The notes: generated from the sequence alone by a model not told the origin. Shown: positions 5,670 through 32,000, counted from the first letter of the stretch. The stretch is DNA of 32,000 bases from Planctomycetales bacterium (GCA_022646745.1 CP060262.1:1380001-1412000); one strand, 5' to 3'. Program-made: numbers and translations.

Positions 5670-7361
5670 TCAGTCCGGCGGACGGCTGAGGGATTCCAGC
5701 AGGCGCTGCTCGCGGCCTTCGAGGAAGTTCACTGCCTGCCCGAGCCCAAACAGCCACAGCCCGGCGGCGATCGCCCAGGCCAGCAGCACCCCGCCCAGCA
5801 ATCCGGGCAGCCCGTAGAACACGGTACCGAGCACGATTGCCATGCTGCCCGGCGCCACGAGCAGGTTGCAGAAGTTGAACAGCAGGCCGTAGAGCAGCAG
5901 GTAGCCGCAGCCCTGCTGGGGAAGCACCGGACGGTAGCGGCGGCCGACGCGCGCGAAGGCGAAGGGGTGCGAGATCGAGAGGAAGTTGCCGGCCATGTCC
6001 ACGATCACGATGTTTGCGATGATCATCGCCATCGCGGCCGCCACGTACATCGGGTCGCAGCGCAGGATCACGCCCATTGCCAGCACGAGCAGCAGGTTGA
6101 CGACGCCGAGGTGGCTCAACAGGAAGATGCTCTTGGCCTGCAGCAGGCTGCGGCGGCTGAGCGGGCTGGCCAGCACCGTTGCCAGCGAGCTGCCCTCGTA
6201 GCCGAAGCGGTTGAACATGATCCCGCTTTCGGAGTAGGTCAGGCCGAAGCTCAGCCCGAGCAGCACGTAGTTGACAATCCCGTGGTGGTCCATGCCTGGT
6301 GCGCCTTCCTCCAGCAGCCTCATGCGCAGCACGACCATCACCACACAGGTGTAGATCCCGAAGAACAGGCTCTGGATCAGCAGGCTGCGCAGCACCGGGT
6401 CACGCTTCACATAGCGCTGCTCACGCTGCACCAGCGCCTGCAGCACGCCACCGGGCAGCAGGCCGGCGATCCCCTGGCTGCGATCGGCCCTGCCATGCTC
6501 CTCCGCGAGCCCGCCGCTTTCCAGCTCACCCTCGTAGAAGGCGCGGGAGGTGCGGCCCAGCAGGAAGACTCCCGGTGCCAGCCATACAAGCATCAGGCCC
6601 CAGTCCAGCAGTGCTGCCAAAGGTTGGCCGGTTGACCATGCGGTGGTTGCACGCGTGGCCAGAGTCGGGAAGCTGTAGTCCATCGCCGCCATCACGGGCT
6701 CGATCCAGCGCTGCAGCGGGGAGCTGGCCAGCTGGCCGCTGATGTCATCCACGCCGCCGACCATTGTCAGGTTGACGATCTGCACGCCGATCACGAGCGT
6801 GATGCCGATCCACATGCTCATCTCGGCGAAGCGCCGCGACTGCAGCAGGCGGTTGACAAGCAGGAAGATGGCCTGGGTCCAGGCCAGCAGGATTGCCAGC
6901 AGCAGCACGAAGCTGACGAGCATCGGCACAAGCCCCAGACCGGCGAAGGCCAGCACACCGACGAACAGCAGCATCGCCGGCAGGAGGATCACGCCCAGCG
7001 GTGAAGCCAGCGCGTCCATCATCACCGCCAGCAGGAACTGGCTGCCGGACAGCGGCATCAGGCGCAGGCCGTTCAGGTCCAGGTTGCGCTGGATGTCAAC
7101 CTGCGCGAAGGGCGAGAACAGCCAGATCAGCGAGAGGATCCAGCTGACCCAGACCATGATCCGGCCAGCCTGCTGCAAGACGTCCCCGCCGCTGTTGAAC
7201 AGGAACACGCCGACGGCCGCCGCACCGCTGAGCGCGCCGATGGTCATGCCGATCCAGGCGAAGATGATCGCGATCGTGTTGCCGATGTTCTTCCGGTAGT
7301 GCCGGATCGTCAGCCTGAATTTGAGCCGCGTCAGTTCCCGCAGCATCGTGCCGGTATGCAT
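5670..7361 (-). CDS. large polytopic membrane protein with ABC-2-type exporter-permease-like architecture (two halves); no adjacent ATPase
   Basis: 563 aa and very hydrophobic throughout. N-terminal amphipathic LRELTRLKFRLTIRHYRKN and a mid-protein REQRYVKRDPVLRS each precede clusters of TM helices, as in fused ABC-2 permeases. The family assignment is tentative. Confidence 0.7.
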   Translation of the reverse strand: MHTGTMLRELTRLKFRLTIRHYRKNIGNTIAIIFAWIGMTIGALSGAAAVGVFLFNSGGDVLQQAGRIMVWVSWILSLIWLFSPFAQVDIQRNLDLNGLRLMPLSGSQFLLAVMMDALASPLGVILLPAMLLFVGVLAFAGLGLVPMLVSFVLLLAILLAWTQAIFLLVNRLLQSRRFAEMSMWIGITLVIGVQIVNLTMVGGVDDISGQLASSPLQRWIEPVMAAMDYSFPTLATRATTAWSTGQPLAALLDWGLMLVWLAPGVFLLGRTSRAFYEGELESGGLAEEHGRADRSQGIAGLLPGGVLQALVQREQRYVKRDPVLRSLLIQSLFFGIYTCVVMVVLRMRLLEEGAPGMDHHGIVNYVLLGLSFGLTYSESGIMFNRFGYEGSSLATVLASPLSRRSLLQAKSIFLLSHLGVVNLLLVLAMGVILRCDPMYVAAAMAMIIANIVIVDMAGNFLSISHPFAFARVGRRYRPVLPQQGCGYLLLYGLLFNFCNLLVAPGSMAIVLGTVFYGLPGLLGGVLLAWAIAAGLWLFGLGQAVNFLEGREQRLLESLSRPPD

Positions 7362-7366
7362 GCAGA

Positions 7367-7381
7367 CCTATTATGGCAGGT
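7367..7381 (-). promoter_or_regulatory. conserved 15-mer containing an extended -10 (TGcCATAAT on the minus strand) 8 nt upstream of the ATG at 7361; candidate leaderless promoter
   Basis: The plus strand reads cctattatggcaggt, identical to 14913..14927. The TAA stop of the upstream korB-like gene (7371..7373) lies inside the CATAAT hexamer. Confidence 0.4.
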
Positions 7382-8132
7382 CGCGCCGGAAGAGGATGCC
7401 CGCCAGCGGTGCCTCCGCCGATGCCAGCAGCGCATGGGCCGCGGCGAGGTCGGCCGGGTCATGCCCGCTGTCGTCAATGCGGCTGATGCTGCGGCGCAGT
7501 TCCTTGTAGATCCCCATCCCGCCGCGGAACACCGGGCAGGGGCTGAGGATGTTCACGAAGCTGAAGCCGGGGTACTCGATCGCCTGCTGCATCAGCTGCT
7601 GCATTGCGGGCTGGTCCGCGGCGTAGGCCTGGGCCACGAAGCCACAGCCGAGGCTGAGCATCAGCGAGAGCGGGTCCACGCTGGCATCGCCCACCGGCTG
7701 GGCGGCGGTGCGCATCTGCGTGCCCGGCGGGGTGGTGGGCGACTGCTGGCCCTTGGTCAGGCCATAGACCCCGTTGTCCATCACGAACAAGGTGATCGCC
7801 GGGTTGCGGCGCACGGTGTGCACGAGGTGCGTGGCGCCGATGCTGAAGATGTCGCCATCGCCGGCGGTGACAATCACCGTCAGTTCCGGCCGGGCCAGCT
7901 TCAGGCCGCTGGCAATCGGCAGGGCGCGGCCGTGGATGCTGTTGAAGCCGTGCGACTCCATGTATCCCGGCAGGCGTGAGGAGCAGCCGATGCCGCTGAC
8001 AAGCGCCACATTGCGCGGCTCGCGGCCCATCCCTTCCAGCGCGGCACAGAGGCCGTCCAGTACATGGAAGTCACCGCAGCCGTCGCACCAGACGGGCTCG
8101 GTCGCGTTGCGGAACAATGGGGTGCTGCTCAT
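7371..8132 (-). CDS. korB: 2-oxoacid:ferredoxin (acceptor) oxidoreductase, beta subunit (TPP-binding)
   Basis: N-terminal WCDGCGDFHVL and GIGCSSR. TPP motif VTAGDGDIFSIGATHLVHTVRRNPAITLFVMDNGVYGLTKGQ. 4-nt overlap with the alpha subunit gene. Confidence 0.88.
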   Translation of the reverse strand: MSSTPLFRNATEPVWCDGCGDFHVLDGLCAALEGMGREPRNVALVSGIGCSSRLPGYMESHGFNSIHGRALPIASGLKLARPELTVIVTAGDGDIFSIGATHLVHTVRRNPAITLFVMDNGVYGLTKGQQSPTTPPGTQMRTAAQPVGDASVDPLSLMLSLGCGFVAQAYAADQPAMQQLMQQAIEYPGFSFVNILSPCPVFRGGMGIYKELRRSISRIDDSGHDPADLAAAHALLASAEAPLAGILFRRDLP

Positions 8133-9853
8133 GGCTGCAGCTCCGGGGGGCCAGCTGGCAGCAGTCCGTGCCTGACGAGGAAGTCCTCAACTTCCGCCAG
8201 GCGCCATGGCCGGCCGCCGCTGCGCCGCAGTGACATTGTCAATTCCGGCAGCTGCAGGCGGCTCCTGAGGTAGTCATGCAGTTGGCCGCTGTAGTTCATC
8301 TCGACGATGACAACATGCCTGTATCCGCGCAGCCAGTCACGCAGTTCAGCCTGGTCCAGCGGGGAAAGCATGCGGATGCACATCATCCCGGCAGTGACTC
8401 CACGTGAGCCCGCCAGTTCGATGGCCTCGCGGCAGATGCTGTAGCTGCTACCGAAGCACAACAGTCCCAGCTCCCCCTCTGCGGCCCCTTCGTACAGCGC
8501 TGGAACCCTGCTGAGAGCCCGATTGACACGGGCGTTCCGCAATAGCGAGTTGGCCTGATGCGAGGCTGCATCACTGAGCGGCCTGCCGGAGTCGTCATGT
8601 TCCAGCCCGGTGAGCTGCACCTGCCTGTCCGCGCCGATTGCCGTGTCCGGCCAGCCGGGGACGCTGCCATTCGGTTCCGGGACCAGGTCCCGTGGCACTG
8701 TTGCCAGTCCCTGGGCGATCTGCTGCTCAGACAGCAGGATCACCGGGGCGCTGGCTTCACCGGCCAGCTCGAAGGCCTGCGTTGCCAGGTCGGCACAGTC
8801 CGCCTGGTGCGCGGCCGCCAGCACGATGCGCGGGCTGTCCCCATGCGCGCCATACAGCGCGAGGTTGAGGTCCGCCTGTTCGGTGCGGGTCGGGATGCCG
8901 GTGCTCGGGCCGCAGCGTTGCACGTCGACAACCACCATCGGCAGGCCGGCCATCCCGCTGAGTGCGATGCTTTCACTTTTGAGCGTCATGCCGGGACCGC
9001 TGGTGGCACTCATGCTGCGCACACCGCCCAGTGCCGCTCCGATCGTCAGGCAGGCCGCGGCGATTTCATCCTCGGCCTGTATGCAGGTCCCGCCGAGTTG
9101 CGGCAGCCGGCGTGTCATGTATTCAAGGATCTCGCTGGCCGGGGTGATCGGGTAGCCGGCCATGAAGCGGCAGCCGCTGGCAATTGCTGCGCGTGAGAGC
9201 AGCTCGTTGCCACTGGCCAGCTCCAGGTCCGCATTTCCATTGGAAGTTGGCAATGCTGGTATTCCGCTGCCCTGCCAGCTGGCCACGGCATCGCGCCCGG
9301 CGGCCACGGCGGCGAGGTTATTCTCCCGGCTGCGTTCGTCGTAGCGCTGCATGCGCCGCTCGAGGATCGCCCTGAGCTGCTGCGGGTACCAGTCCAGCAG
9401 GCCGCTGGCCGCGCCGAGCAGCACCATGTTGCGCGCCTGCTTGCTGCGGCCGTGGTCCAGTGCGAGTTGCTTCAGCGGCAGGCTCAGGAGCGGGCCACGA
9501 TGGCCAATGGGCAGGCCACAGGCCTGAGGGTCGCCATCGTCCTCGGAAGAGCAGATCACCAGCGCATCGGGCGCGATGCTCAGCACATCGTGGAAGCGCG
9601 CGAGGTCCGACCACTGCAGCACCAGCAGCACATCCAGCTCATCCGCACTGCGCAGCACCTGCGACTGGCTGATGCGCAGGCTGACGCTGCTTTCCCCGCC
9701 TCGGATCTGCGGGCCGAACACCTTATCCATGTAGCAGTGCAGGCCGGCCAGCACCGCCGAGCGCGCCAGCAGTTCACCGAGCAGCACCACACCGTCGCCG
9801 CCGCTGCCGACGACACCGATGCTCAGCTGGGATGGACTGCCTGAGGGGGACAC
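8129..9853 (-). CDS. korA: 2-oxoacid:ferredoxin (acceptor) oxidoreductase, fused gamma-alpha subunit
   Basis: Gamma-like N-terminus GSGGDGVVLLGELLARSAVLAGLHCYMDKVFGPQIRGGES, followed by an alpha-type GNELLSRAAIASGCRFMAGYPITPASEILEY. GTG start preceded by TACAAT (rc of 9860..9865) with a 6-nt spacer. Confidence 0.88.
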   Translation of the reverse strand: MSPSGSPSQLSIGVVGSGGDGVVLLGELLARSAVLAGLHCYMDKVFGPQIRGGESSVSLRISQSQVLRSADELDVLLVLQWSDLARFHDVLSIAPDALVICSSEDDGDPQACGLPIGHRGPLLSLPLKQLALDHGRSKQARNMVLLGAASGLLDWYPQQLRAILERRMQRYDERSRENNLAAVAAGRDAVASWQGSGIPALPTSNGNADLELASGNELLSRAAIASGCRFMAGYPITPASEILEYMTRRLPQLGGTCIQAEDEIAAACLTIGAALGGVRSMSATSGPGMTLKSESIALSGMAGLPMVVVDVQRCGPSTGIPTRTEQADLNLALYGAHGDSPRIVLAAAHQADCADLATQAFELAGEASAPVILLSEQQIAQGLATVPRDLVPEPNGSVPGWPDTAIGADRQVQLTGLEHDDSGRPLSDAASHQANSLLRNARVNRALSRVPALYEGAAEGELGLLCFGSSYSICREAIELAGSRGVTAGMMCIRMLSPLDQAELRDWLRGYRHVVIVEMNYSGQLHDYLRSRLQLPELTMSLRRSGGRPWRLAEVEDFLVRHGLLPAGPPELQP

Positions 9854-9885
9854 GGGGCTATTGTAACGGGCAGCTGGCGCTAGAC

Positions 9886-10491
9886 CTACGCCGTGCCAAA
9901 GCCCAGCACGGCCGCATGGATGCGTGTATCGCGGCTCAGTTCCGGATGGAAGGTGATCGCGAGGATGTTCCCCTGGCGCACGGCGATGATCTCACCCTCG
10001 TAGCGTGCCACGACATGTGTGTCCGGGCCGGGTCCGAGGATGCGCGGGGCACGGATGAACCATGCCGGCAGCATGGGCTTCGGGTCATCCACACCGAGCA
10101 GCGCCCAGTCGATCTCGACTACGGTTTCGAAGCTGTCCACCTGCCGGCCATAGCTGTTGCGGTCCACCGTGGCATCCAGCAGGCCGAGCGGGTCCACCTT
10201 GCGGCTGCCAGTGTCGCCCTGCAGTTCGCGGGCCAGCAGGATCGTGCCGGCGCAGGTGGCAAGCGTAGGCAGGCCGGCGGCGATTGCGTCATGCAATGGC
10301 GCGCGCAGGCCGGTGCTGTCCAGCAAGAGCGACATCGTGGTGGACTCCCCGCCGGGCAGCACGACCATCGCGAGGCCCGTGAGGTCCTCCGCACTGCGCA
10401 CATAGCGCACGCGCAGGCCAAGCCGCTTGAGGGACTTGCGGTGCTTCTCGTAATCGCCCTGCAGGGCGAGGATGCCGGCGAGGGGCTTCAT
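9886..10491 (-). CDS. pdxT: pyridoxal 5'-phosphate synthase glutaminase subunit PdxT
   Basis: MKPLAGILALQGDYEKH, LPGGESTT, catalytic ATCAGTILLA and TFHPELS. The ORF track extends it to 10932, but that N-terminal extension is Arg/His-rich junk overlapping the divergent gene. The ATG at 10491 has TAGAAT plus an 8-nt spacer upstream. An alternative ATG lies at 10509. Confidence 0.9.
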   Translation of the reverse strand: MKPLAGILALQGDYEKHRKSLKRLGLRVRYVRSAEDLTGLAMVVLPGGESTTMSLLLDSTGLRAPLHDAIAAGLPTLATCAGTILLARELQGDTGSRKVDPLGLLDATVDRNSYGRQVDSFETVVEIDWALLGVDDPKPMLPAWFIRAPRILGPGPDTHVVARYEGEIIAVRQGNILAITFHPELSRDTRIHAAVLGFGTA

Positions 10492-10536
10492 CGGCGCAGA
10501 TTCTAGCATCTTTGAATCACGGTAAAATGAAACGGC
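10492..10536. promoter_or_regulatory. 45-bp divergent intergenic region carrying two back-to-back candidate leaderless promoters
   Basis: Minus strand: TAGAAT (rc of 10500..10505), then ctgcgccg, then ATG at 10491. Plus strand: TAAAAT (10523..10528), then gaaacggc, then ATG at 10537. No Shine-Dalgarno on either side. Confidence 0.5.
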
Positions 10537-11760
10537 ATGTTCCTCGTTCTTTTCATACTGGGGTGGATTCTGGTACACGGGGCAACCAAGGGGCGCTACA
10601 TCCTCAGTTCCCCGCGCAACGTGAAGCAGGAAGTAGCCGGCATCGTGCTGGCGATTTCCATGCTGTGCGGCATGGTCGGCATGTTCGCCGGGGGGGACAT
10701 CTCCTTCCAGGGAGCCGGCATCCTCGCGGCGATCACATGGTTTGGCATCCTCTTGATGCGTACCTCGCTCGTGGACCATGCGGCCCAGCGCAAGGATGAG
10801 GAGAACCTGCAGGCGCAGCTGGAAACCCGGCGCAAGGCCCGGGCGGAGCGCAAGGCCGCCGAGAAGGTGGCCAGTGCCGTCAAGCAGATCCCAGAGCCGC
10901 GCAGCAAAGACGGCCGCATGACCAAGCCACATTCAAGCACGAGCGCGGACTCCGGCATGATGCAGACGCCACCCCCGCCTCCGCCCAAGGTGACAACAGT
11001 GGACCGCAGCTGGGACGGCAGCTTCCGCGTGGCGGACAGCCGCCAGCAGGAGCTGCAGCAGCGCTTCAATTCCGGCGACCCGCTCAGCCCCCGCCAGGAT
11101 GAAGTGATTGCCAATGTGCTGCATGTCGGGCAGCCGGAGCCGGAGGGTGGCTACCACAGCGATGCGGATGAGGTGATGCAGATCGCGCGTGACACGATCG
11201 GCAGCATGTCTAAGGCAAAGCCCACAGTGCAGCCATCGCGGGAAGCGGTGCAGCCCGTGCCTGAAGAGGATCCAGTGCCCGAGGTTGTGGAATCCGCTCC
11301 GGCGCCCGAGCCGGAGTTCGTGCCGCAACAGGGCTGGTCAGCGCCGAAGATCGAGCACACCCGTTATAAACTTGACAACGCCGGTGACAAGCCGGTTTCC
11401 ATCTTCGGCTCAGGCAGCAGCAGTTCCGCCGGGGGCGGGCAGAGCCTGTTCGCTGGCGGGGAGCAGCGTCCGCAGCGGGCCAGGGCCGCGCCGGAGGTTG
11501 ACAAACTGCTGGCGCAGAACAGGCTTGGCAACGATGAGGAACTGACCCGCCCGCAGGCTGTGCTGGCCGGCACGGATACGCCCGGCGCGATTGAGTCCAG
11601 TGCGCCGCAGCCGCCGGATGATGGCAACATCGTGGAGGCGGAAGCCCTGCTGCCGGACAGCGAGCTGACGCAGCCGAAGAATGTGCTGGAGGAAGCGGAG
11701 AAGGGTCAGGGTCCGGGCTTCCACTACAAGCCGACCGAAGGCATCAAGAGCCGGTTCTGA
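10537..11760 (+). CDS. membrane-anchored protein with a long charged, Pro-rich, probably disordered tail; function unknown
   Basis: The N-terminal 90 aa carry 3 hydrophobic segments. A Lys/Arg/Glu-rich stretch follows (RKDEENLQAQLETRRKARAERKAAEK), then PPPPPPK and a low-complexity P/E/Q/S-rich sequence. Codon usage matches its neighbours. Confidence 0.6.
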   Translation: MFLVLFILGWILVHGATKGRYILSSPRNVKQEVAGIVLAISMLCGMVGMFAGGDISFQGAGILAAITWFGILLMRTSLVDHAAQRKDEENLQAQLETRRKARAERKAAEKVASAVKQIPEPRSKDGRMTKPHSSTSADSGMMQTPPPPPPKVTTVDRSWDGSFRVADSRQQELQQRFNSGDPLSPRQDEVIANVLHVGQPEPEGGYHSDADEVMQIARDTIGSMSKAKPTVQPSREAVQPVPEEDPVPEVVESAPAPEPEFVPQQGWSAPKIEHTRYKLDNAGDKPVSIFGSGSSSSAGGGQSLFAGGEQRPQRARAAPEVDKLLAQNRLGNDEELTRPQAVLAGTDTPGAIESSAPQPPDDGNIVEAEALLPDSELTQPKNVLEEAEKGQGPGFHYKPTEGIKSRF

Positions 11761-23239: not shown

Positions 23240-25690
23240 GTGAACAAACCTCATCTGCAGGTCGCAGTGCGCGGCCTGATCGCTTCTGTGCTGGCGGCGC
23301 TGGCCGTCACACAGGCCGGAGCCCAGGACAGCATCGCCCCCCGTGAACCGCTGCCGCCGCACCCGGTGATCCAGCGCGACCTGACACTGACCGACATGGA
23401 CATCGACATTGACATCCGCAACGGCACCGCGCGCACCGTTGTCACCCAGACCCTGCGCAATGACACCGGCCGCGTTGCCGAAGGCAAGTGGATGATGCCG
23501 CTGCCGGAGGGTGCGACGATCACCGACTTCACGCTGATCGACGGTGACAACGCGCTCACGCCGGAGATCCTCGACAGCAATGAGGCGCGCGGCATCTACC
23601 AGGACATCGTGCGCCGCATGAAGGACCCCGGCCTGCTGGAGTACCAGAACAACCGCACGGTCAGCGTGAGCGTATTCCCATTCCAGCCAGGCCAGAGCCG
23701 CCAGGTGAAGATCAGCTTCAGCAACACGCTGAGCGGAACCACGGAGCTGCAGCAGTACATGCTGCCGCTGCGCTGGGCCGGCTGGAGCCGCGTGCTGGAC
23801 ACCAACCTGATGATCCGCTACAAGGTCAGCGCCGACCACGACATCGGCAGCGTTGCCAGCCCGAGCTTCGCCGTCAGCGTCAACCGCGATGGCAACCGCA
23901 AGGTGAGCGGCAGCTATGAGGGCGTGATGTCCAGCTTCAGCTCGGACTTCCTGCTCAACATCGGCCGGCGTACTGACGACTTCGCCGCCAGCCTGCTGTG
24001 CTTCCCCGGTGACAACGGCGAGGATGGCTACTTCACGCTGAGCCTGCTGGCGGCGATGCCCGAGGAGCAGAAGGTGATCCCGAAGGACGTGCTGTTCATC
24101 TTCGACAAGAGCGGTTCGATGGACGGCGAGAAGATCCAGCAGGCGCGCGGAGCGCTGAACTTCGTCGTCGGCAAGCTGCGCGAGCAGGACCGCTTCAACC
24201 TGATCTACTACAGTGACAACGTCGAGACCCTGTTTGACTCGATGCGGCCAGGCACGAACGAGAACATCGAACTGGCCCGCAACCGTGTGACGCAGCTGGA
24301 TGCCAGCGGTGGCACGGACATCAACACGGCGCTGCAGGCCGGTGCCGACATGCTGCGCCCGGACGGCCGCCCGACCTACGTGGTTTTCCTGACGGATGGC
24401 CTGCCGACGGTCGGTGACACGAATGTTGACAACATCCTGAACAATGCGAAGGGCAGCTTCAAGCAGGCCGTCAAGCTGTTCGCCTTCGGCGTGGGTCATG
24501 ACGTGAACACCACCCTGCTGGACAGCCTGAGCTATGACCACCACGGGGCCGCGACCTACGTCGACCCGAGCGAGGACATCGAGGTCAAGGTCAGCCAGTT
24601 CTACTCGAAGATCGCCAGCCCCGCACTGACGGACATCCGCCTCGAGCTCGGCGGGATCAACGAGTACGACGTGATGCCGCGTGAGCTGCCGGACCTGTTC
24701 CACAACAACGAGATCTTCATCACCGGGCGTTACAGCTCGATCAACCTTGCCAATGTGGCGGTCAGCGTGACCGGCAAGTCCGGCGACAAGGAGAAGACCT
24801 ATGCCGCCAACATCCCCGCCAACGTGAGCAGTGGCAACCACCATGTGCCGCGCCTGTGGGCCACGCGCAAGGTGAGTTTCCTCCTGGACCAGATCCGCCT
24901 GAAGGGCGAGAACAAGGAGCTGCTGGACGAGGTTGACAGGCTGGCGGTGCGTTACGGCATCGTCACGCCATACACGAGCTACCTGATCACCGAACCCGAC
25001 ATGTACTTCCGCGAGCAGGACCGTATGGCCAACCTGGCCATGAACATCGAGGAGGCGATGGAGGACGAGAGCGGCGAGGCCGCCGTAGGACGCAGCCGCC
25101 AGAGCATGCAGAACCAGGCAGCTGACAACGCCGCCGCCCCGCAGACCGCAGGTGCCGTGGCCGGCAGCAGCGGCTTCGACAAGAAGGTCTACGGCAAGGA
25201 TGCGGACATCATGCTCGACCAGGCCTACATGAAGTACTCCGAGGGCTGGTTCGGCTACTACGAGGGCCTCGGCAGCGCCACGCCGGGCACCACAGTGAAC
25301 TACGTGCGTGAGCAGACCTTTGTCAACAGCGAGAGCCGCTGGGTCGATTCCCGCTTCCGTGATGATGAGCAGAAGACCGTCAGGCTGCAGACCTACAGCG
25401 ACGAGTACTTCGCGCTGCTGGACGACTATCCGGAGCTGGGCGACTACCTCAGCCAGGGTGAGAACGTGGTGTTCGTTGTCAACGACGACATCGCGCTGGA
25501 GACCGGCGCGGAGCTTGAGAACAGCAGCAAGGCCGAGATTGACGGCCTGCGCCGCGCGCTGGAAGGCGCCAGGCGTGATGCATCCGCGGCCCCGGCTGCC
25601 GGCACTCGCAGGGTGGCAACGGCGCCATACGGCGTGGCGGGCGTGCTGCTGCTGGCCGGCATCGCGGGCTGGAAGCTGGCACGCGGCTGA
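23240..25690 (+). CDS. VIT domain plus von Willebrand factor type A domain protein with a signal peptide and a C-terminal TM anchor
   Basis: Signal-like LIASVLAALAVTQAGAQD. VIT-like N-terminal region. vWA MIDAS motif VLFIFDKSGSMDG with later GGTDI and FLTDGLPT. C-terminal YGVAGVLLLAGIAGWKLARG. GTG start with GGGAG upstream. Confidence 0.88.
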   Translation: MNKPHLQVAVRGLIASVLAALAVTQAGAQDSIAPREPLPPHPVIQRDLTLTDMDIDIDIRNGTARTVVTQTLRNDTGRVAEGKWMMPLPEGATITDFTLIDGDNALTPEILDSNEARGIYQDIVRRMKDPGLLEYQNNRTVSVSVFPFQPGQSRQVKISFSNTLSGTTELQQYMLPLRWAGWSRVLDTNLMIRYKVSADHDIGSVASPSFAVSVNRDGNRKVSGSYEGVMSSFSSDFLLNIGRRTDDFAASLLCFPGDNGEDGYFTLSLLAAMPEEQKVIPKDVLFIFDKSGSMDGEKIQQARGALNFVVGKLREQDRFNLIYYSDNVETLFDSMRPGTNENIELARNRVTQLDASGGTDINTALQAGADMLRPDGRPTYVVFLTDGLPTVGDTNVDNILNNAKGSFKQAVKLFAFGVGHDVNTTLLDSLSYDHHGAATYVDPSEDIEVKVSQFYSKIASPALTDIRLELGGINEYDVMPRELPDLFHNNEIFITGRYSSINLANVAVSVTGKSGDKEKTYAANIPANVSSGNHHVPRLWATRKVSFLLDQIRLKGENKELLDEVDRLAVRYGIVTPYTSYLITEPDMYFREQDRMANLAMNIEEAMEDESGEAAVGRSRQSMQNQAADNAAAPQTAGAVAGSSGFDKKVYGKDADIMLDQAYMKYSEGWFGYYEGLGSATPGTTVNYVREQTFVNSESRWVDSRFRDDEQKTVRLQTYSDEYFALLDDYPELGDYLSQGENVVFVVNDDIALETGAELENSSKAEIDGLRRALEGARRDASAAPAAGTRRVATAPYGVAGVLLLAGIAGWKLARG

Positions 25691-25705: not shown

Positions 25706-25739
25706 AAGGGGGCCATGGCAATGCCATGGTCCCCCTTTT
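25706..25739 (+). terminator. rho-independent terminator after the VIT-vWA gene
   Basis: aagggggccatgg (25706..25718) pairs with ccatggtccccctt (25724..25737) with one bulged t. Loop caatg, followed by a T-run (25736..25739). Confidence 0.75.
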
Positions 25740-25743
25740 AGTA

Positions 25744-25882
25744 CTCAGTGGTCAGTGGGCAGTGGTCAGAGAGAATCAGTTTGCAGAAACAGAAGCAGCA
25801 TATCCCAGTTGTCAGTTCCCTGAATCCTGACTTGATTCTCATTCTGATTCTGCTTCTCAAACTGCCCACTGACCACTGCAGT
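25744..25882 (-). repeat. composite heptamer-based hairpin repeat, copy A (inverted relative to copy C)
   Basis: A perfect 18-bp inverted repeat, cagtggtcagtgggcagt (25746..25763) with actgcccactgaccactg (25861..25878). The reverse complement aligns arm for arm with 29458..29623. The 35-nt block agtgggcagtNtgagaagcagaatcagaatgagaa has 1 mismatch. The 60-nt block tgctg..ttctgcaaactgattctc.ctgaccactg... has about 7 mismatches. Confidence 0.85.
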
Positions 25883-25946
25883 TTGGACTTCCGGTCGCTT
25901 CCGCGCTTCTGGTACTGCCTGTCAGTAAATCCCGGTAAAGCCCGGA

Positions 25947-25952
25947 TATAAT
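25947..25952 (+). promoter_or_regulatory. consensus TATAAT -10 box upstream of the small coiled-coil gene
   Basis: gaTATAATc lies about 60 nt upstream of the ATG at 26012. The -35 is weak. Confidence 0.35.
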
Positions 25953-26011
25953 CCCAGCAGGCAGGTCGCCCTGGCGGCGGCACGGGCCCGGTTATCCGGA
26001 GGAGAGACGCA

Positions 26012-26269
26012 ATGAAAAGAGGTTCACCCGCAGAAGTCGACATCAACGAGCTGAACATGTCCGTTGTCAGGATGCGCGACGAGATGGACCTCATGAAGGA
26101 ATTCAGCCTGCAGGTCAGTGAGGGCATGCAGGCTTCCACCAAGCTTTTGGTGGCCCTGCAGGAAATGGTCTGCGTGGTGGAGAGGCGCCTGAGCATCATC
26201 GAGCAGCGCCTCGGGCTGGAACAGGCGGAGAGCCTTGAGCAGGTGGCCGAGCGCGCGCTTGAGGAATAG
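26012..26269 (+). CDS. small (85 aa) soluble, predicted coiled-coil protein of unknown function
   Basis: GGAGGAG Shine-Dalgarno 7 nt upstream of the ATG. Third-position GC bias matches neighbouring genes. Heptad-like distribution of L/V/I/M with E/R/Q. Flanked on both sides by repeat elements. Confidence 0.6.
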   Translation: MKRGSPAEVDINELNMSVVRMRDEMDLMKEFSLQVSEGMQASTKLLVALQEMVCVVERRLSIIEQRLGLEQAESLEQVAERALEE

Positions 26270-26389
26270 CTGGCAGAGAGCAGAAAGCAGGGAGCAGGGG
26301 GCAGACTAGGTTTATCGATACATCCAGTCTGCTGTCTGCTATCAGCTCCCTACTGATTACTGACCACTGATCACTGATACACTCACAGC
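26270..26389 (+). repeat. composite heptamer-based repeat, copy B (shorter, divergent); fills the whole intergenic gap
   Basis: (GCAGRRR)x5 at 26273..26307. 7-bp stem gcagact/agtctgc (26301..26307 with 26326..26332). (YYACTGA)x4 at 26350..26377. The 3' arm resembles the 3' arm of copy C. Its end supplies TACACT 6 nt upstream of the GTG at 26390. Confidence 0.7.
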
Positions 26390-27916
26390 GTGACCGCCAC
26401 GCTGCTGACAGATGCACGCGAGCTCTTTGCGCTGATGCGCGGGCAGGCGCACAACCCGCTTCTGGATCAGTGGCAACTGGCAAGGCGCAGGCGTAGCCTC
26501 AGGCTCGGCTTCCACGGCAGGCTGAAACAGCCGCAGGCAAGCTGGTTGTTGCCATTGTTCATCCCGATCATCATCTGGATGAATCAATCAATTGGCCAGT
26601 CAATGCTCGATCTGCTGCCAATGGTTCTCTCTTGTCTGCTGCTGCTGGCATGGCTGCTTCCGCGATTGAAACTGCTGCTGCGTATCGCCCTGACAATCGC
26701 AGTGGCGACAACTCTGGCAATCATGATTCATGTCGACGGCAACTACCTGTTCTCGTCATTCTGGCCTGATTTCCACAATACCGATGGGAGCGGACAGCTC
26801 ATTCTTTTGCAGTTGCTGGCCGGTATCTACTGCCTGCAGGCCATCGGCCGCGCGATACAGCATGGCATGCTGCTGACCGGTTCGCAGTCCGGCTTCCATC
26901 CGGAGCAGGACGCCTCGGACATCCGCAACTCACTGCTGGATGACCGCGAGATCCTGCAGGCCTTCATCGCATTCCACTTTCCTTCACTGCTTGGAAGCTT
27001 CGCCTGGCTGAGCCTGTTTTCCGGGATGGAGCTGACAGCATACATAGGGGAGATCCACTTAGTTGAAGCGATGCTGGTTTCCTTCGGGCTTGGATTTGTG
27101 ATTCTTCTATTCTCTCTTTGCGCTTGCCTACTTCTGATGATGTTCGTGGTCCAGCTCCGGCCACACCTGCCGGTCCGTCTGGCTGCCATTGGGCTTTGCA
27201 GCCTGATTTTGCTAGGGCAACTCGCCCAGGTGTTCTTATTCCGCTACTTCGCGCTGGACTACCACAGCTATAACATCCGTTTCCTGTTCGATGTCGCAGC
27301 CATCACTCCGCATCATATGCGTACATGGCTGATGATGCTGGCCCTCAGCTGGCTGTTTGCGATCCATCCGGCCCGCCTGTTGGCTAGGCTCAGCGCGCAG
27401 CGAAGGCAAATACTTGCGTCATCTGTGTTGCTGCTGTTCATTGCCTACCTGTTGCTCTTTATGGTTGCAGTTTCAAATGAAGCATTGCTGATTGTCCGCC
27501 CGGCATACGCTGAACTGGAGGAGTATCTTCAGGGGGTCTGCTGGAGCCTGCTGATGATCCTCGGCTGGGTTTCATTACTGCTGGCATCACAGTACAGCCG
27601 TTTCATGCGTCTGGTGGCAATGCTTGCCCCCCTGGCCGGATTGATCCTGCTGTATGGCTTGACATTCAAGTTGGGAAATGCCGGATTCGTGCCTGCTGAA
27701 TTCGTGCTGCTGTTGCTGACAACTTCGGCATTCTCGATTATCGGCAGCGAGCCGGTGTTCAATTTCATGATTGCCTACATCTACCGGGACTACCAGAATG
27801 TTTCACTGATAGTGGCGCATGCTCTGCTCTGTGGTGCCCTCCAGTTTTTCATGCTGTTCCTGATGCACCGCTTGGCACTAATGGCAATCAATCGCTGGCG
27901 GAGGCTTGCTGAATGA
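26390..27916 (+). CDS. polytopic membrane protein, paralog 1 (508 aa, many TM segments; no assignable family)
   Basis: Highly hydrophobic ORF. Shares the N-terminal peptide LLTDARELFALMRGQAHNPLL[D/E]QWQLAR, the mid-protein DIRxSLLxDRE[IV]L..A....H.P.L and the C-terminal ..ALQF....FLM.RLAL with the next gene. GTG start. The stop overlaps the next start (ATGA). Confidence 0.8.
   Translation: MTATLLTDARELFALMRGQAHNPLLDQWQLARRRRSLRLGFHGRLKQPQASWLLPLFIPIIIWMNQSIGQSMLDLLPMVLSCLLLLAWLLPRLKLLLRIALTIAVATTLAIMIHVDGNYLFSSFWPDFHNTDGSGQLILLQLLAGIYCLQAIGRAIQHGMLLTGSQSGFHPEQDASDIRNSLLDDREILQAFIAFHFPSLLGSFAWLSLFSGMELTAYIGEIHLVEAMLVSFGLGFVILLFSLCACLLLMMFVVQLRPHLPVRLAAIGLCSLILLGQLAQVFLFRYFALDYHSYNIRFLFDVAAITPHHMRTWLMMLALSWLFAIHPARLLARLSAQRRQILASSVLLLFIAYLLLFMVAVSNEALLIVRPAYAELEEYLQGVCWSLLMILGWVSLLLASQYSRFMRLVAMLAPLAGLILLYGLTFKLGNAGFVPAEFVLLLLTTSAFSIIGSEPVFNFMIAYIYRDYQNVSLIVAHALLCGALQFFMLFLMHRLALMAINRWRRLAE
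26402..26485 (+). repeat. 84-nt conserved 5' coding module, copy 1
   Basis: 79 of 84 nt identical (hand alignment) to 27970..28053. 4 of the 5 differences are synonymous third positions. Confidence 0.85.
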
Positions 27917-29457
27917 ATGCTGATAAGCATGTTGCTTCTGCCATGCTTGCAGATAGCAGCAATCCGGGGCTGCTGACTGACGCACGCGAGCTCTTCGCGC
28001 TGATGCGCGGGCAGGCGCACAACCCGCTTCTGGAACAGTGGCAACTGGCGAGGCAGCGCAAGTGGCAGCGCAGCGGCTGGTGGGCCCGCTACGGCATCAT
28101 CCTGATCTGCTGGCTGCCCAGCCTGGCGCTCTATTACTTTTTCGCATCCTTCCCATTCAGCAATCCGCCGGATCCTGAGAACTTCGCCGTTCCGCTCATG
28201 CTGGGCGGTGGGCCGCTTGTGCTGCTCATCGGCTTGTTGCTGCCGCTCAGGTTGGCAACGATGCGGACGCTGCTGATGCTCATCGGCGGCCTGCTGGGAT
28301 TTGCCGCCTCCTTCTCAGGCTTCAGGCTGTACAGCACGGATGTCGAGGATGCCATGGTGGCACTCAGTTTCGCCGTGCTGATCCCGCTGTTTTCATATAC
28401 GCTGGCTGGACTGTTTGCGGCGCTTGGGCATGGGCTGGACATCACATCGGAGACGGGCGAGGCGCGCCGGGACCAGTCTGCACAGGACATCCGGCTCTCA
28501 CTGCTTGGCGACCGCGAGGTCCTGCTGGCCTACCTCGCCCTGCACCTGCCGCAGCTCTTCAGGCGCATCGCCTGGCTGGGCTGGGGAGTGATGATGGTGC
28601 TCGTGCTGTCGACAACATCTGATTTCTACAATGCCAATCTGGTGTTGCCACCGGCCATGCTCGGGGCTGCCGTATGGGTCAGTTCACAACTGGCGGCCTG
28701 TGTAATGCTGATGCTGGCAGCGCTCTCAATCCGCCTGCAGGGCAGCAGCGGCCGCTCCCGGCTGTCAGTGCTGCTGCTGTTCATCGGGGCGCAGTACGGC
28801 CTGGCGCTGGCATCCTGCTTCGTGATGTTCGAACCGGGCCGCGAGGCCGACTCCTACTGCAACAACCTCAACCTGGGCGAGAAACTGCTGCTGCTCAGCC
28901 CGCTGCTGTTGTCAGTACCGCTGTCGATTGCCCTGCGCCGGGCCGCGGATTCCGCGGCTGACCTGCTTGCCCTACTTGGCATGCTGCTTTCGGCATCAAT
29001 CGTTCTGGTGGTGCTTCTGCCTGACCTGCAGTACCTTTCCGATGGATATGTTGCCAGCCACCAGCCGGAATTCATGCTGAGCCTGCTGCTGCCTGTGATG
29101 TTGCTGTCGGGCCTGTGGCTGGCACGATACAGGGCCTGGGTGCGTACGATTCTACTGGTCATGCCAGCCCTGCTCGGCGCGCTCAGCCTGGTGATCCTGC
29201 TGGCCTTGATGTTCAGCATGTCAGGCGGCAGCCTGCCGGTGCTCATGCAGGAGCTGGTGCGCAGTGTCGCCGCCTACTCCGTCGGCAGTGTGCTGGCGGT
29301 GCAGTCATCCATCTTCTGGGGGGACTGGAACAGCCTGCATGAGCCGCTGATCGAATGGTGGCGCTGGCCGCTGCATGTTGCGCTGCAGTTCGTTGTCATC
29401 TTCGTGATGTACCGGCTGGCGCTGCAGCAGGTACGCGCCTGGCGGATGAACCAGTGA
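27913..29457 (+). CDS. polytopic membrane protein, paralog 2 (514 aa)
   Basis: Same conserved islands as paralog 1 with an extra 20-aa N-terminal leader. Hydrophobic throughout. GC-rich, like the rest of the window. Confidence 0.8.
   Translation: MNADKHVASAMLADSSNPGLLTDARELFALMRGQAHNPLLEQWQLARQRKWQRSGWWARYGIILICWLPSLALYYFFASFPFSNPPDPENFAVPLMLGGGPLVLLIGLLLPLRLATMRTLLMLIGGLLGFAASFSGFRLYSTDVEDAMVALSFAVLIPLFSYTLAGLFAALGHGLDITSETGEARRDQSAQDIRLSLLGDREVLLAYLALHLPQLFRRIAWLGWGVMMVLVLSTTSDFYNANLVLPPAMLGAAVWVSSQLAACVMLMLAALSIRLQGSSGRSRLSVLLLFIGAQYGLALASCFVMFEPGREADSYCNNLNLGEKLLLLSPLLLSVPLSIALRRAADSAADLLALLGMLLSASIVLVVLLPDLQYLSDGYVASHQPEFMLSLLLPVMLLSGLWLARYRAWVRTILLVMPALLGALSLVILLALMFSMSGGSLPVLMQELVRSVAAYSVGSVLAVQSSIFWGDWNSLHEPLIEWWRWPLHVALQFVVIFVMYRLALQQVRAWRMNQ
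27970..28053 (+). repeat. 84-nt conserved 5' coding module, copy 2
   Basis: See 26402..26485. Confidence 0.85.
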
Positions 29458-29623
29458 AGAGTGGTCAGTAGTCAGTAGTCAGTGGGCAGTATGAGAAGCA
29501 GAATCAGAATGAGAAACAGAATCAGAATGAGAAGCAGGTCAGGAAACCAATTACCTCAATCTGCTGTTTCTGCTTCTGCAAACTGATTCTCCCTGACCAC
29601 TGTCCACTGATTACTGACTACAG
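29458..29623 (+). repeat. composite heptamer-based hairpin repeat, copy C; fills the convergent intergenic gap
   Basis: (AGTRGKC)x4 at 29460..29487. 18-nt unit gagaaRcagaatcagaat x2.5 at 29493..29537. 23-bp basal stem with 2 mismatches (29468..29490 with 29599..29621). Abuts the TGA of paralog 2 and overlaps the stop codon (29618..29620) of the minus-strand gene. Confidence 0.85.
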
Positions 29624-30928
29624 TTTGCTGCCTTTCTCGCTGCTGATGGCAACATCAGCGTTGCCATCTTCAGCCGCTTCAGCGTCCTTGCCATAGTCGC
29701 GCAGCTCGTCCATGTGCAGCTCCGCCAGCTGCTGGCCTTCGATCTCGATCACCAGCACGCCGTCCTTGTCCTCGCTCACATGGATCTTCTCACCGGTGTA
29801 GCTGCTTGACTTGTAGCGCAGCACCGGCATCCCGCTGGCCTCCAGCCGCTTCTCGTTCGTGAAGATCTCCACCAGCGGGGCATTGAGGGTCATGCCGTGC
29901 CCGATGTCCTCCAGCTCCACCTGCCAGGCCTGCATCAGGCCCTCGTCCATCATGAAGTCGAGGTTCAGGGCCGTCAGTTCTATGTCGCGCTCGGGGTCAG
30001 TCACGTTGACCCGGCCACGGGCGCGCACCACATGCGCCTCGAGGTCGATGCTGACACCCGGTGCCGCACTGTCCGGCGCGGGTGGAGCGGACTGGCTGCC
30101 GCCGGGCACCAGCGGGTCAAGCTCCCTGGCAACACTCTGCTCCAGGCTGCCGTCGTCCGGCTGCGGGCTGATCAGCATGTCGATCCCGCTGTACGCCAGC
30201 CGCACCTCACCGGGCACATTGACAATCCCGGTGTTCATGTTGAACACGCAGCCTGAAGTCTGCAGCTGCAGCGGCTCAGCCATTCCCTTCTGCCTGTAAC
30301 TGCCGGAGATGTGACCGGAGGCGGTCACGATACCGGCATTGCTGTCCAGGTGGATCCCGTCCGCACTGAGCCGCGTGCTGCCGTTGGCATCATCCATCGA
30401 GAGGCTGGTGCGTCCACTGCCGGTCCAGGTCTGGCCGCCGTCGGTGCTTTCCACGCTGGCGGTGCTGATCACCACGCCGTGGCCCTCGAAGCGCACGTTG
30501 CCATTCGCCTTCAGCCGGCGCACGCTGTCGGAGCGGAAGCGTGCCTTCGGCAGTTCGAGATCACGCGCGATCTGCCCGAGGTCCTCGCCCTCGGCGCGGT
30601 TCTCCAGTTCCTCCGGCAGGCTCGGGATGCCCTCATCGGGCAGCTCCAGCTTGCCGTCGACCGGCAGCGCCTCGCCGACCAGCGTCAGTTCCAGCGCGTC
30701 GGTGTACAGTACCAGCCCGCGCCCTTCGATGCGAACCCCGCCGGAGAAGCGCATCAGGGTCAGTTCCTCCATCGGCGTGATCGTCAGGCCGTTGGCGTAG
30801 ACCTGGTAGCTGCGCATCATCGGCGCCGGTTCCTGCGGTGCGGGAGCACTGTCCTGGGCCCTTGCCTGCATGAGCGCCGCCGCCAGCAGCAGCACTGCCA
30901 TGCCCATCCTGACTGCCATCATTCTCAA
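29618..30928 (-). CDS. periplasmic protein with repeated LptA/OstA-like beta-jellyroll-type segments (signal peptide)
   Basis: Signal peptide MAVLLLAAALMQARAQD. Recurrent motifs of the type FSGGVRIEGRGLVLYTDALEL, LKANGNVRFEGHGVVISTASV, VTASGHISGSY, VRARGRVNVTDPERDIELTALNLDF and LEASGMPVLRY recall OstA_N/LptA folds. The assignment is tentative. Confidence 0.45.
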   Translation of the reverse strand: MRMMAVRMGMAVLLLAAALMQARAQDSAPAPQEPAPMMRSYQVYANGLTITPMEELTLMRFSGGVRIEGRGLVLYTDALELTLVGEALPVDGKLELPDEGIPSLPEELENRAEGEDLGQIARDLELPKARFRSDSVRRLKANGNVRFEGHGVVISTASVESTDGGQTWTGSGRTSLSMDDANGSTRLSADGIHLDSNAGIVTASGHISGSYRQKGMAEPLQLQTSGCVFNMNTGIVNVPGEVRLAYSGIDMLISPQPDDGSLEQSVARELDPLVPGGSQSAPPAPDSAAPGVSIDLEAHVVRARGRVNVTDPERDIELTALNLDFMMDEGLMQAWQVELEDIGHGMTLNAPLVEIFTNEKRLEASGMPVLRYKSSSYTGEKIHVSEDKDGVLVIEIEGQQLAELHMDELRDYGKDAEAAEDGNADVAISSEKGSKL

Positions 30929-32000
30929 TTCATACCTCCGATGCCCTGCACCGGCCTGATCTGCTTCTTTGTGTCAAGCAGCTCGATTGTCAGCTGCTGC
31001 ACCCGCTCATGGTTGCCACGCTGCTCCTCCTGCTTCATCTCACGCAGCAGCTCGGCCACGCGCCGCTCGAGGAAGATGTTGCAGTGCCGGCGGATCAGCA
31101 TGTCCGCGCTGGACTCCTGTTCCTCCTCCTGCGGCCGGCTGAGCAGCTCAGCGAAGAAGCGCCGCCAGCGGTCGTCATGCACCACCCGGTCCGGCTTCTC
31201 CTGCTCGAGCAGCAGTGCATTGTAGATCTCGCGGTGCAGCCCGTTCACGAACCATTCCGGCTGGGCGATGCGCAGGTAGATGAAGCGGAACTCGTCATCC
31301 GTTGCCAGCCTGCGCAGCACCTCGCGCTCGACGGGCTGGCTGCCCTGCATCGCGGCGCGGTTGCGGGCATCCTCCACCAGCGCGCGGCGGTGCAGCTGCT
31401 CGCTCTCCTCCACGTCCTCGGTCCAGCCGGGACGGATGTTCACGAGCCCCTTGCGCCGCTCCTCGCGCTGCAGCTTGCGGTAGCGGTCCTGTGCCAGGCG
31501 CTGCTTGTCAATCGCGCGCCCCGCCTGCCGCGGCTGGACGTTGCCACTGAGCAGCTGGCTGACGATCTCCGGGCGCAGCAGCAGGTGGTCCGCCAGCTGG
31601 CGGCGAATGTCCTCGCGCAGCAGCTCGTCCGAGATGCCCATGTACAGCGGCCGCAGCTCAGCGATCCAGGCCCGCCTGAGCGGCAGGTCCGCATCCGGGT
31701 GCGCGGCCAGCTGGTGCTCCAGCCAGAACTGCACCACGCCGCGTGACTCGCTCAGCAGGCCCTTCCAGGCTGCGTTGCCACGTTCGCGCACGAAGTCATC
31801 GGGATCCATCCCGCCCGGGATCACCACCACCCGCGCGTCGATCCCCTCGCCGAGGAACAGCTTGCCGGCTTTCCAGGCCGCGCTGCGCCCGGCGTTGTCA
31901 CCGTCGAAGGCGAGGTAGACGCGTTCGGTGTAGCTGCGGATCTGGGCTACATGCTCCGGGGTCAGCGCCGTGCCGCAGGTCGCCACCGCATTGGCAACGC
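30925..32000 (-). CDS. dnaG: DNA primase DnaG, TOPRIM plus C-terminal region (partial; N-terminus lies beyond the window)
   Basis: The frame stays open to position 32000 (...VANAVATCGTALTPEHV). TOPRIM motif LAFDGDNAGRSAAWKA and IPGGMDPDDF. 4-nt overlap with the downstream gene. Confidence 0.88.
   Translation of the reverse strand, partial: VANAVATCGTALTPEHVAQIRSYTERVYLAFDGDNAGRSAAWKAGKLFLGEGIDARVVVIPGGMDPDDFVRERGNAAWKGLLSESRGVVQFWLEHQLAAHPDADLPLRRAWIAELRPLYMGISDELLREDIRRQLADHLLLRPEIVSQLLSGNVQPRQAGRAIDKQRLAQDRYRKLQREERRKGLVNIRPGWTEDVEESEQLHRRALVEDARNRAAMQGSQPVEREVLRRLATDDEFRFIYLRIAQPEWFVNGLHREIYNALLLEQEKPDRVVHDDRWRRFFAELLSRPQEEEQESSADMLIRRHCNIFLERRVAELLREMKQEEQRGNHERVQQLTIELLDTKKQIRPVQGIGGMN

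Follow-up and report, generated by a model that had tools for sequence, protein, structure and literature searches.

Near-identical 5' segments in two divergent tandem membrane-protein genes point to recent recombination at a conserved coding motif

Introduction

How do two neighboring genes come to begin with almost the same DNA when the proteins they encode are otherwise hardly alike? The question is raised by a tandem pair of genes for predicted polytopic membrane proteins in a 32,000-nucleotide (nt) stretch of the genome of a Planctomycetales bacterium (GCA_022646745.1, CP060262.1:1380001-1412000), referred to here as the window, with positions counted from its first nucleotide. Both genes, and the segments of their locus described below, lie on the plus strand. 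The upstream open reading frame (ORF), W1 (508 amino acids, GTG start), runs from 26390 to 27916 and is intact in three assemblies; the downstream ORF, W2 (514 amino acids, ATG start), runs from 27913 to 29457. We call the near-identical 5' segment that they share the head and the remainder of each gene the body. The original prediction, made from the sequence of the window alone, set recent gene conversion of the 5' end beside constraint at the nucleotide level and very strong selection on the encoded peptide.

Results

Head and body of W1 and W2

A repeat search found one long direct repeat in the region, 86 nt at 26401 to 26486 (head copy 1) and at 27969 to 28054 (head copy 2), 94% identical and with a spacing of 1,568 nt. 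Over the 84 nt that enter the codon alignment, W1 and W2 agree at 79/84 nucleotides and 27/28 amino acids. Four of the five differences are synonymous (ACA/ACT, GAT/GAC, TTT/TTC, and GCA/GCG) and the fifth, GAT/GAA, exchanges D for E, as the original prediction had described. Past the head, identity falls to 108/449 amino acids (∼24%), and a BLASTP alignment of the two proteins was restricted to the 40-residue head. The weak downstream similarity had also been anticipated, together with its exceptions. One is a second conserved island, DIRNSLLDDREILQAFIAFHFPSL in W1 (26918 to 26989), which carries the family motif DIRxSxLxxRExLxAxLAxHxP and has its W2 counterpart at 28486 to 28557; here, nucleotide identity reaches 61 to 69% in 28-codon windows. 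The other is the C terminus, where similarity is likewise present.

Identity between the paralogs is thus not uniform along the genes: it drops in a sharp step, from 94% of nucleotides in the head to 43% in the remainder, and the step has the form of a recombination tract in that synonymous sites are included. Where the two proteins carry the same residue, they use the same codon at 21/25 positions in the head (84%) versus 48% in the body (binomial P = 2 × 10−4). Within the window, a 35-nt core of the repeat is present in exactly two places, and dinucleotide shuffles contain none.

The two ORFs overlap by ATGA at 27913 to 27916, in agreement with the earlier reading of the sequence, and W2 is predicted to be translationally coupled behind W1. 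A Shine-Dalgarno-like GGAGG (27899 to 27903), read from the sequence, lies 9 nt before the ATG at 27913 and within the codons of the C-terminal WRR motif of W1, which is conserved in the family. A second candidate start of W2 lies at 27943. Upstream of W1, a TACACT hexamer sits 6 nt before the GTG at 26390 and is conserved in orthologs. A sigma-70 scan, which bears on the proposal of a leaderless start for W1 with a −10 element supplied by a repeat, found no promoter.

Recombination in the head

Relatives of the pair were available from three related species of the candidate phylum UBP7 (L001/L010, L011, and L012) and from a distant relative of ∼53% GC (L008); a GTDB genome scan placed orthologs in the UBP7-labelled metagenome-assembled genomes HKST-UBA01 and HKST-UBA03 and in isolate AC1.30. 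Heads and bodies were analyzed in separate neighbor-joining trees with bootstrap. In the body tree, W1 fell outside the clade of W2, L010, L011, and L012 with 100% bootstrap support, whereas in the head tree it fell inside the grouping of W2 with L010. The two heads of the window differ from each other at 5 of 84 nucleotides and from the L010 head at 11 and 14 of 84; therefore, the event that made them alike postdates the split between the window lineage and L010. Given the conflict between the trees and these counts, the near-identical heads very probably record a recent recombination event in the head, by insertion or by conversion, and to that extent the earlier suggestion of recent gene conversion at the 5' end is supported. 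The mosaic is clear but of an ordinary kind, in which paralogs recombine, or are converted in part, at a conserved 5' segment. W1 would then be a chimera in which the resident start and head are joined in frame to a very divergent family body. W2, judged by its alignments, is the resident gene body, orthologous to the single gene of the relatives.

The L001/L010 ortholog carries the base of copy 2 at four of the five sites that separate the copies; with c1 and c2 denoting the copy whose base is matched, its head reads c2-c2-c2-c2-c1. Copy 2 therefore looks ancestral-like, and copy 1 appears to bear four of the five derived substitutions. As a separate observation, three of the five changes from copy 2 to copy 1 (GAC>GAT, TTC>TTT, and GCG>GCA) run from G/C to A/T at third positions, a direction that matches the low GC content at third codon positions (GC3) of the W1 body in numbers too small to interpret.

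Syntenic locus in related species

By tblastn, L010, L011, and L012 each have a single family gene at the syntenic site. The gene order is shared between the window and these three relatives: HD-domain protein, Rho, VIT-VWA protein, an 85-amino-acid gene, the family gene or genes, a convergent 435-amino-acid gene, and DnaG. The single gene of the relatives encodes 499 amino acids and begins GTG-ACx-GCC-ACG (read as "MTAT"), like W1 (the orthologs start VTAT... or VTGPS...), and its body is the ortholog of W2, to which it is 87% identical in amino acids in P0002/L010 and 65% in P0003/L011.

In blastn comparisons, window positions 25861 to 26478 match L001 positions 5438 to 6089 at 88% nucleotide identity, and 27969 to 32000 match 6012 to 10065 colinearly at 89%. 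Both window heads map onto the one head of L001, and the intervening 26487 to 27968 is unmatched there. Therefore, the window locus equals the ortholog locus plus a block of 1,482 nt set within 86-nt direct repeats. This window-specific block (26487 to 27968) comprises the W1 body and a 56-nt leader and is absent at the syntenic site in all three related species, which hold an empty site with a single copy of the repeat. The segment before it, 26270 to 26400, contains the upstream spacer, the GTG start, and the "MTAT" codons and is orthologous to the 5' end of the relatives' single gene. The leader (27913 to 27968) encodes MNADKHVASAMLADSSNPG and is without counterpart in the orthologs. It ends ...MLADSSNPG before the LL of the head, and other family members have 6 to 9 residues before that LL; this likeness in length raises the possibility that the leader is the original 5' end of the incoming gene (MLADSSNPG-LL...).

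The block also deviates in composition. The W1 body has a GC content of 54.6% and a GC3 of 0.69, both the lowest among the 20 window genes measured; W2 has a GC3 of 0.81, and all genes but W1 lie between 0.73 and 0.91. The genome as a whole has 63.5% GC, and relatives with ∼53% GC exist. Together, the low GC and GC3 of the W1 body and the existence of such relatives fit a fairly recent arrival from a lower-GC lineage.

Gain or loss of the second gene

The arrangement is best read as the insertion of a divergent family member, with duplication of the head, in the window lineage, a reading to which we give a probability of about 0.55. That W1 was gained and not lost, that it joined by a crossover, and that its body is foreign are what we infer. 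The resident locus would at first have consisted of the upstream spacer, the GTG/MTAT start, the head, and body 2, as in the three UBP7 relatives. What came in, probably from a relative of lower GC, would have been body 1 together with a 56-nt 5' leader of its own, and it would have joined by recombination inside the head as a very divergent member of the same membrane-protein family. A crossover would be placed in the head because this is the only family segment conserved enough for pairing and for an in-frame junction that keeps the register. In the product, the upstream region and MTAT would be followed by head and body 1 and then by leader, head, and body 2, as one crossover or an unequal exchange within the head would arrange them, with 86-nt repeats around a 1,482-nt insert. 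Body 1 would have taken over the resident start and presumably the promoter, and the resident body, now downstream, would have kept a complete head and acquired a 19-residue extension along with a start coupled through ATGA. The heads would then have gained their five substitutions. The pattern of four synonymous changes and one D/E exchange fits translation of both genes under purifying selection.

Other evidence also favors insertion. On the tree ((W, L010), (L011, L012)), with the gene in single copy in L010, L011, and L012, one gain explains what would otherwise take two losses plus a conversion, which favors gain. In addition, the resident upstream region and start stand on the newcomer and the newcomer's leader stands on the resident, an exchange of ends that indicates a crossover or unequal exchange and not a simple conversion.

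Several observations weigh against insertion. No donor was found, nor any other W1-like body, among 5.8 billion clustered proteins, 1.84 billion representative proteins, or the JGI metagenomes. A crossover with a divergent donor should leave hybrid heads, but copy 2 of the head looks fully native and copy 1 is native at 94%; neither an identifiable donor nor hybrid repeat copies were seen. An extra homogenizing step, or a donor that already had a native-like head, would be needed. In the distant relative L008, two family genes also stand in tandem at the orthologous locus, so that the tandem state may be ancestral. Loss by head-to-head recombination would be mechanistically easy and could have happened twice. 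Finally, the GC3 argument rests on one gene, and the family lies slightly below its neighbors in GC3.

These points lead to the strongest alternative, which we consider possible but doubtful: that W1 and W2 are ancient tandem paralogs, that their 5' ends were recently converted in the sole segment with enough similarity, and that W1 was lost separately in the L010 and L011/L012 lineages by recombination between heads, leaving a W1-type start on a W2-type body. Besides the tandem pair at the syntenic locus of L008, this account draws on the fact that a pop-out between the 86-nt repeats would give an in-frame MTAT-head-body 2 and so regenerate exactly the single-gene layout of L010, L011, and L012; on the ends of the tract, which coincide with the limits of the family-conserved motif; and on the heads of the pair, which resemble each other more than they do the head of the ortholog. 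Nevertheless, it requires three events (two losses and one conversion) versus one. The W1 body is no closer than W2 to an L008 copy, nor is it resolved as the ortholog of one. The deviant composition of the W1 body and the 56-nt leader, at a GC3 of 0.69, is unexpected for a gene long resident in a genome of 63.5% GC. Furthermore, a pop-out hybrid would read c1 at its 5' end and c2 at its 3' end, which is not what the c2-c2-c2-c2-c1 head of L010 displays. The L008 pair itself consists of family genes at 8001 to 9521 and 9589 to 10608, which follow the VIT-VWA gene with a 67-nt spacer between them; the contig ends within the second.

Beside insertion as the favored origin of W1, a smaller anomaly was observed within W2. 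From 28798 to 28930, nucleotide identity to the closest ortholog, L010, is 51 to 72%, with flanks at 96 to 100%. This is the only coding stretch in the lowest 3% of window-L010 comparison windows. Here L010 resembles L011, and the encoded residues (305 to 321) form a low-confidence loop. The comparison suggests a second short replacement in W2. Near-identical patches among W2, L010, and L011 at about 28761 to 28905 were also considered as interspecies exchange; this was dropped after a locus-wide sliding-window control in which windows in Rho and VIT-VWA were equally high.

Constraint on the peptide and on the nucleotide sequence

Could selection on the encoded peptide alone, without recombination, have kept the heads alike? 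The family available for comparison is small, ∼8 sequences in six gene lineages. A W2 search of 5.8 billion clustered proteins returned four clusters (W2, P0002 at 87%, P0003 at 65%, and W1), and a profile search of the same 5.8 billion proteins added no family members. When W1 was searched exhaustively with phmmer in the 1.84 billion representatives, 5 proteins came back, of which only P0005, P0006, and a fragment were new. In the JGI metagenomes, head DNA had 0 matches, and family peptide patterns gave 184 pattern matches with no relatives among them. Members share ∼500 amino acids, an all-helical architecture, the central motif DIRxSxLxxRExLxAxLAxHxP, and a C-terminal ...LQ...WR(R). W1 retains all 44 columns that are invariant across six aligned members and lacks the WGD...EWWR submotif near the C terminus.

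The head is the best-conserved motif of this family, LLxDARELxxLMRGxxxNPLL[ED]QWxLARxR, located before the first membrane helix and found in W1, W2, P0002, P0003, L012, P0005, L008b, and P0006; its residues D, R, E, G, NPLL, QW, and R are invariant. In AlphaFold2 models, it is predicted with a local confidence (predicted local distance difference test [pLDDT]) of ∼86 to 87 in both paralogs. Four of the five differences between the paralog heads are synonymous. An importance of the head for function is plausible from this conservation. Purifying selection on a docking or targeting peptide is nonetheless a very unlikely sole cause of the near-identity. Between family members that differ as much as W1 and W2 do, only 52 to 61% of head residues are shared, and the tandem heads of L008 (L008a and L008b) are identical at 15/27 amino acids and 50/81 nucleotides (62%). 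The divergence of the L008 heads indicates that tandem position alone does not keep heads identical and that peptide selection alone does not explain the near-identity of the W1 and W2 heads. Selection on a peptide also does not preserve codons, and the second island, at 61 to 69% nucleotide identity, serves as an internal control for protein constraint without recent exchange. Thus, the earlier proposal of a peptide under very strong selection stands insofar as this is the family's best-conserved motif and fails on the synonymous identity and on the L008 heads. Further genes beginning with the head peptide, which the original prediction had in view, were not found: only two bodies carry this head among the 1.84 billion representatives.

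Selection acting directly on the DNA or RNA, whether for a structure, a regulatory site, or a dedicated recombination site, fares worse, and we regard it as highly improbable. Such selection could account for the same codon being kept at 21/25 identical residues, and a short palindrome around TGCGCGGGCAGGCGCA lies in the middle of the 86-nt module. However, in orthologs, synonymous sites have changed in the head no more slowly than in the gene body. Between W2 and L010, identity is 87% of nucleotides in the head and 89% in the body, with same-codon use of 71% and 87%, respectively; between W2 and L011, the corresponding values are 77% and 70% of nucleotides and 52% and 59% of codons. The L008 tandem heads, as given above, agree at just 62% of nucleotides. 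In four genomes, the RNA folds predicted for the module were no better than those of shuffles (z −0.05 to +1.37), an Rfam search of the module returned no match, and no recombinase gene is present in the 32-kb window. With no excess conservation among orthologs, no unusual fold, and no known RNA family, the proposed nucleotide-level constraint, including the RNA element or recombination site of the original prediction, was rejected.

The weakest alternative is that two alleles of co-occurring strains were concatenated at the shared head during assembly. In its favor, related UBP7 populations co-occur in the same sample series, probably the saline activated-sludge time series from which 3 UBP7 metagenome-assembled genomes have been reported (PMC8495973), and two metagenome contigs (L006 and L007) both break inside W2 at 28760. 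It can be set aside: the W1-stop/leader/head junction is unique sequence, the tandem arrangement recurs at 99.98% identity in these two independently assembled contigs, records of both proteins exist for a 4.1-Mb contig and under two sets of NCBI accessions, plain concatenation would not produce the 56-nt leader, and the arrangement is not an assembly artefact. The shared contig end at 28760 directly precedes a stretch of ∼70 nt that is nearly identical in the co-occurring L010 and L011 and also lies before the divergent patch of W2; it is probably an assembly-graph break caused by sequence common to the species.

Protein structure and gene neighborhood

Neither protein was assigned to a known family: scans of W1, W2, and the 85-amino-acid protein against Pfam, NCBIfam, and PADLOC returned nothing significant, and the family profile had 0 matches to Protein Data Bank (PDB) sequences at E ≤ 10. 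AlphaFold2 models built on a six-sequence alignment are all-helical and polytopic, with a pLDDT of 67.6 and a predicted template modeling score of 0.72 for W2 and 57.3 and 0.62 for W1. Both models show the head as two short helices that precede the first membrane helix, and the central island, like the head, is predicted with confidence. Foldseek found no match of the W2 model, at its pLDDT of 67.6, in the PDB (best E value, 0.66; template modeling score, <0.2). Hydropathy predicts roughly 11 to 13 membrane helices. The arginine cluster that follows the head, taken with the positive-inside rule, suggests that the head and N terminus are probably cytoplasmic.

The family gene evolves faster than every neighbor compared. 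Its amino acid identity is 87% versus 94 to 100% for neighbors in the comparison with L010, 65% versus 70 to 89% with L011, and 26 to 35% versus 44 to 72% with L008. It adjoins the VIT-VWA gene at all loci with enough flank (the window and near-identical contigs, L001/L010, L011, L012, and L008); these loci are syntenic relatives and not independent, and the short contigs L002 to L005 and L009 fall outside the count. VIT-VWA is the sole recognizable neighbor; a 436-amino-acid neighbor protein gave only a weak BNR-repeat match (E = 0.12).

The VIT-VWA protein (816 amino acids; window positions 23240 to 25690 and L008 positions 5564 to 7907) has a hydrophobic helix and then WKLARG (in L008, WKLMRS) at its end, a conserved C-terminal membrane anchor or possibly a sorting signal. 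In L008 the gene is in two pieces; a frameshift, in a contig of 2× coverage, is a possible cause. An intrinsic-terminator-like hairpin with a T-tract follows the VIT-VWA gene at 25708 to 25734. Two candidate functions for the family were rejected. For an enzyme of sortase or rhomboid type that would process the C-terminally anchored VIT-VWA protein, there was no supporting catalytic motif or fold, and the likeness of NPLLEQWxLARRR to the N termini of ABC-2 permeases came with no profile match and no adjacent ATPase. The ABC ATPase of the window is part of an Mla operon 12 kb away.

Between VIT-VWA and W1 lies the gene for the 85-amino-acid predicted coiled-coil protein (26012 to 26269), which is without a family match. 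It is 100% identical to its L010 counterpart and 86 to 91% identical to the L011/L012 group, much better conserved than the adjacent membrane protein; tblastn found no copy of it in L008.

The three spacers around the operon of the 85-amino-acid gene, W1, and W2, at 25740 to 25880, 26274 to 26385, and 29452 to 29630, consist of 7-nt periodic units, CAGTnnn/ACTGnnn, together with GCAGnnn and GAGAAGCAGAATCA. Similar spacers occur in L010 (7412 to 7978), L011 (7312 to 7987 and 9506 to 9642), and L012 (7328 to 7987 and 9607 to 9634), and the arrays are absent from L008 and L009. In the window, 17/18 matches to the unit pair fall in these spacers, versus 0.8 expected. Two of the spacers fold as very long hairpins (−82 kcal/mol, z −8.2; and −67 kcal/mol, z −5.3). 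An ACTGnnn array runs right up to the GTG start and has 4 units in the window, 5 in L010, and 8 in L011 and L012. A regulator-binding array, a terminator, and a variable-length spacer are all possibilities for these arrays.

Discussion

Partial conversion or concerted evolution with conserved 5' ends is reportedly known from babA/babB and other Hop outer-membrane paralogs of Helicobacter pylori and from duplicated tuf genes. W1 and W2 resemble these systems in having a short near-identical tract, synonymous sites included, beside diverged sequence, in the resulting tree conflict, and in within-genome copies that are more alike than either is to the ortholog. They differ in that the bodies are just ∼24% identical in amino acids, far beyond typical converting paralogs, and in that the resident promoter and start stand on the divergent copy, W1, which points to crossover or insertion rather than simple conversion. 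Unlike the Hop proteins and the other examples, the W1/W2 family is an uncharacterized polytopic protein of inner-membrane type.

The layout also recalls Campbell-type integration, with an insert of deviant composition between direct homology repeats and an empty single-copy site in relatives. In contrast to such integration, no circular intermediate, mobile-element gene, or donor was identified, and the repeats are near-native, not hybrids.

A conserved head on a variable body had suggested a polymorphic or cassette-type system to the original prediction. In Rhs and contact-dependent inhibition (CDI) loci, orphan rhs-CT fragments retain part of the conserved region, and 522 bp at 95% identity permits recombination with the main gene (PMC3967940). 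As in orphan displacement at those loci, a new variable part stands on the resident conserved part in the window, the old part lies downstream with a conserved copy, and the direct repeats would permit later deletion of the module or a switch to it. Unlike Rhs/CDI loci, the W1/W2 locus shows no toxin/immunity pair or Rhs/CdiA features in Pfam, NCBIfam, or PADLOC scans. The conserved part is 86 nt at the N terminus and not kilobases, and the displaced W2 keeps a full head, start codon, and ribosome-binding site instead of becoming a silent orphan. Just two body types are known in all public data, both in intact ORFs with starts and without domain matches, and no recombinase, toxin, or immunity gene lies near W1/W2; the features of an Rhs/CDI-like polymorphic toxin cassette were therefore not found.

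A broader version of the cassette idea, in which the 86-nt head would act as a recombination handle through which co-occurring UBP7 populations stack, swap, and pop out the highly variable bodies of a fast-evolving polytopic membrane protein, in analogy to Rhs/CDI displacement, appears improbable to us. It fits the displacement-like topology, the replaced patch in W2, the status of the family gene as the fastest-evolving gene of the locus, and the tandem pairs in two distant lineages. For the cassette-type suggestion of the original prediction, presence or absence between species, the low-GC body, and the displacement-like topology are circumstantial support; no further bodies with this head were seen among the 1.84 billion representatives, and no recombinase, toxin, or immunity gene was seen nearby. 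If the broader cassette reading were true, the body would be expected to be under diversifying selection, for instance through a receptor- or immunity-like function linked to the VIT-VWA surface protein.

The locus reveals no new RNA element, targeting signal, or dedicated diversity-generating system. With insertion as the favored reading, what it offers is a documented natural case in which a short conserved coding segment lets family members that are ∼24% identical recombine in frame. The chimera would take the resident start, and presumably the promoter, and the resident gene would survive as a coupled downstream copy. This would constitute a route to gene-family expansion and allele stacking without mobile-element machinery. 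The finding also flags an orphan, very fast-evolving family of membrane proteins in the little-studied candidate phylum UBP7.

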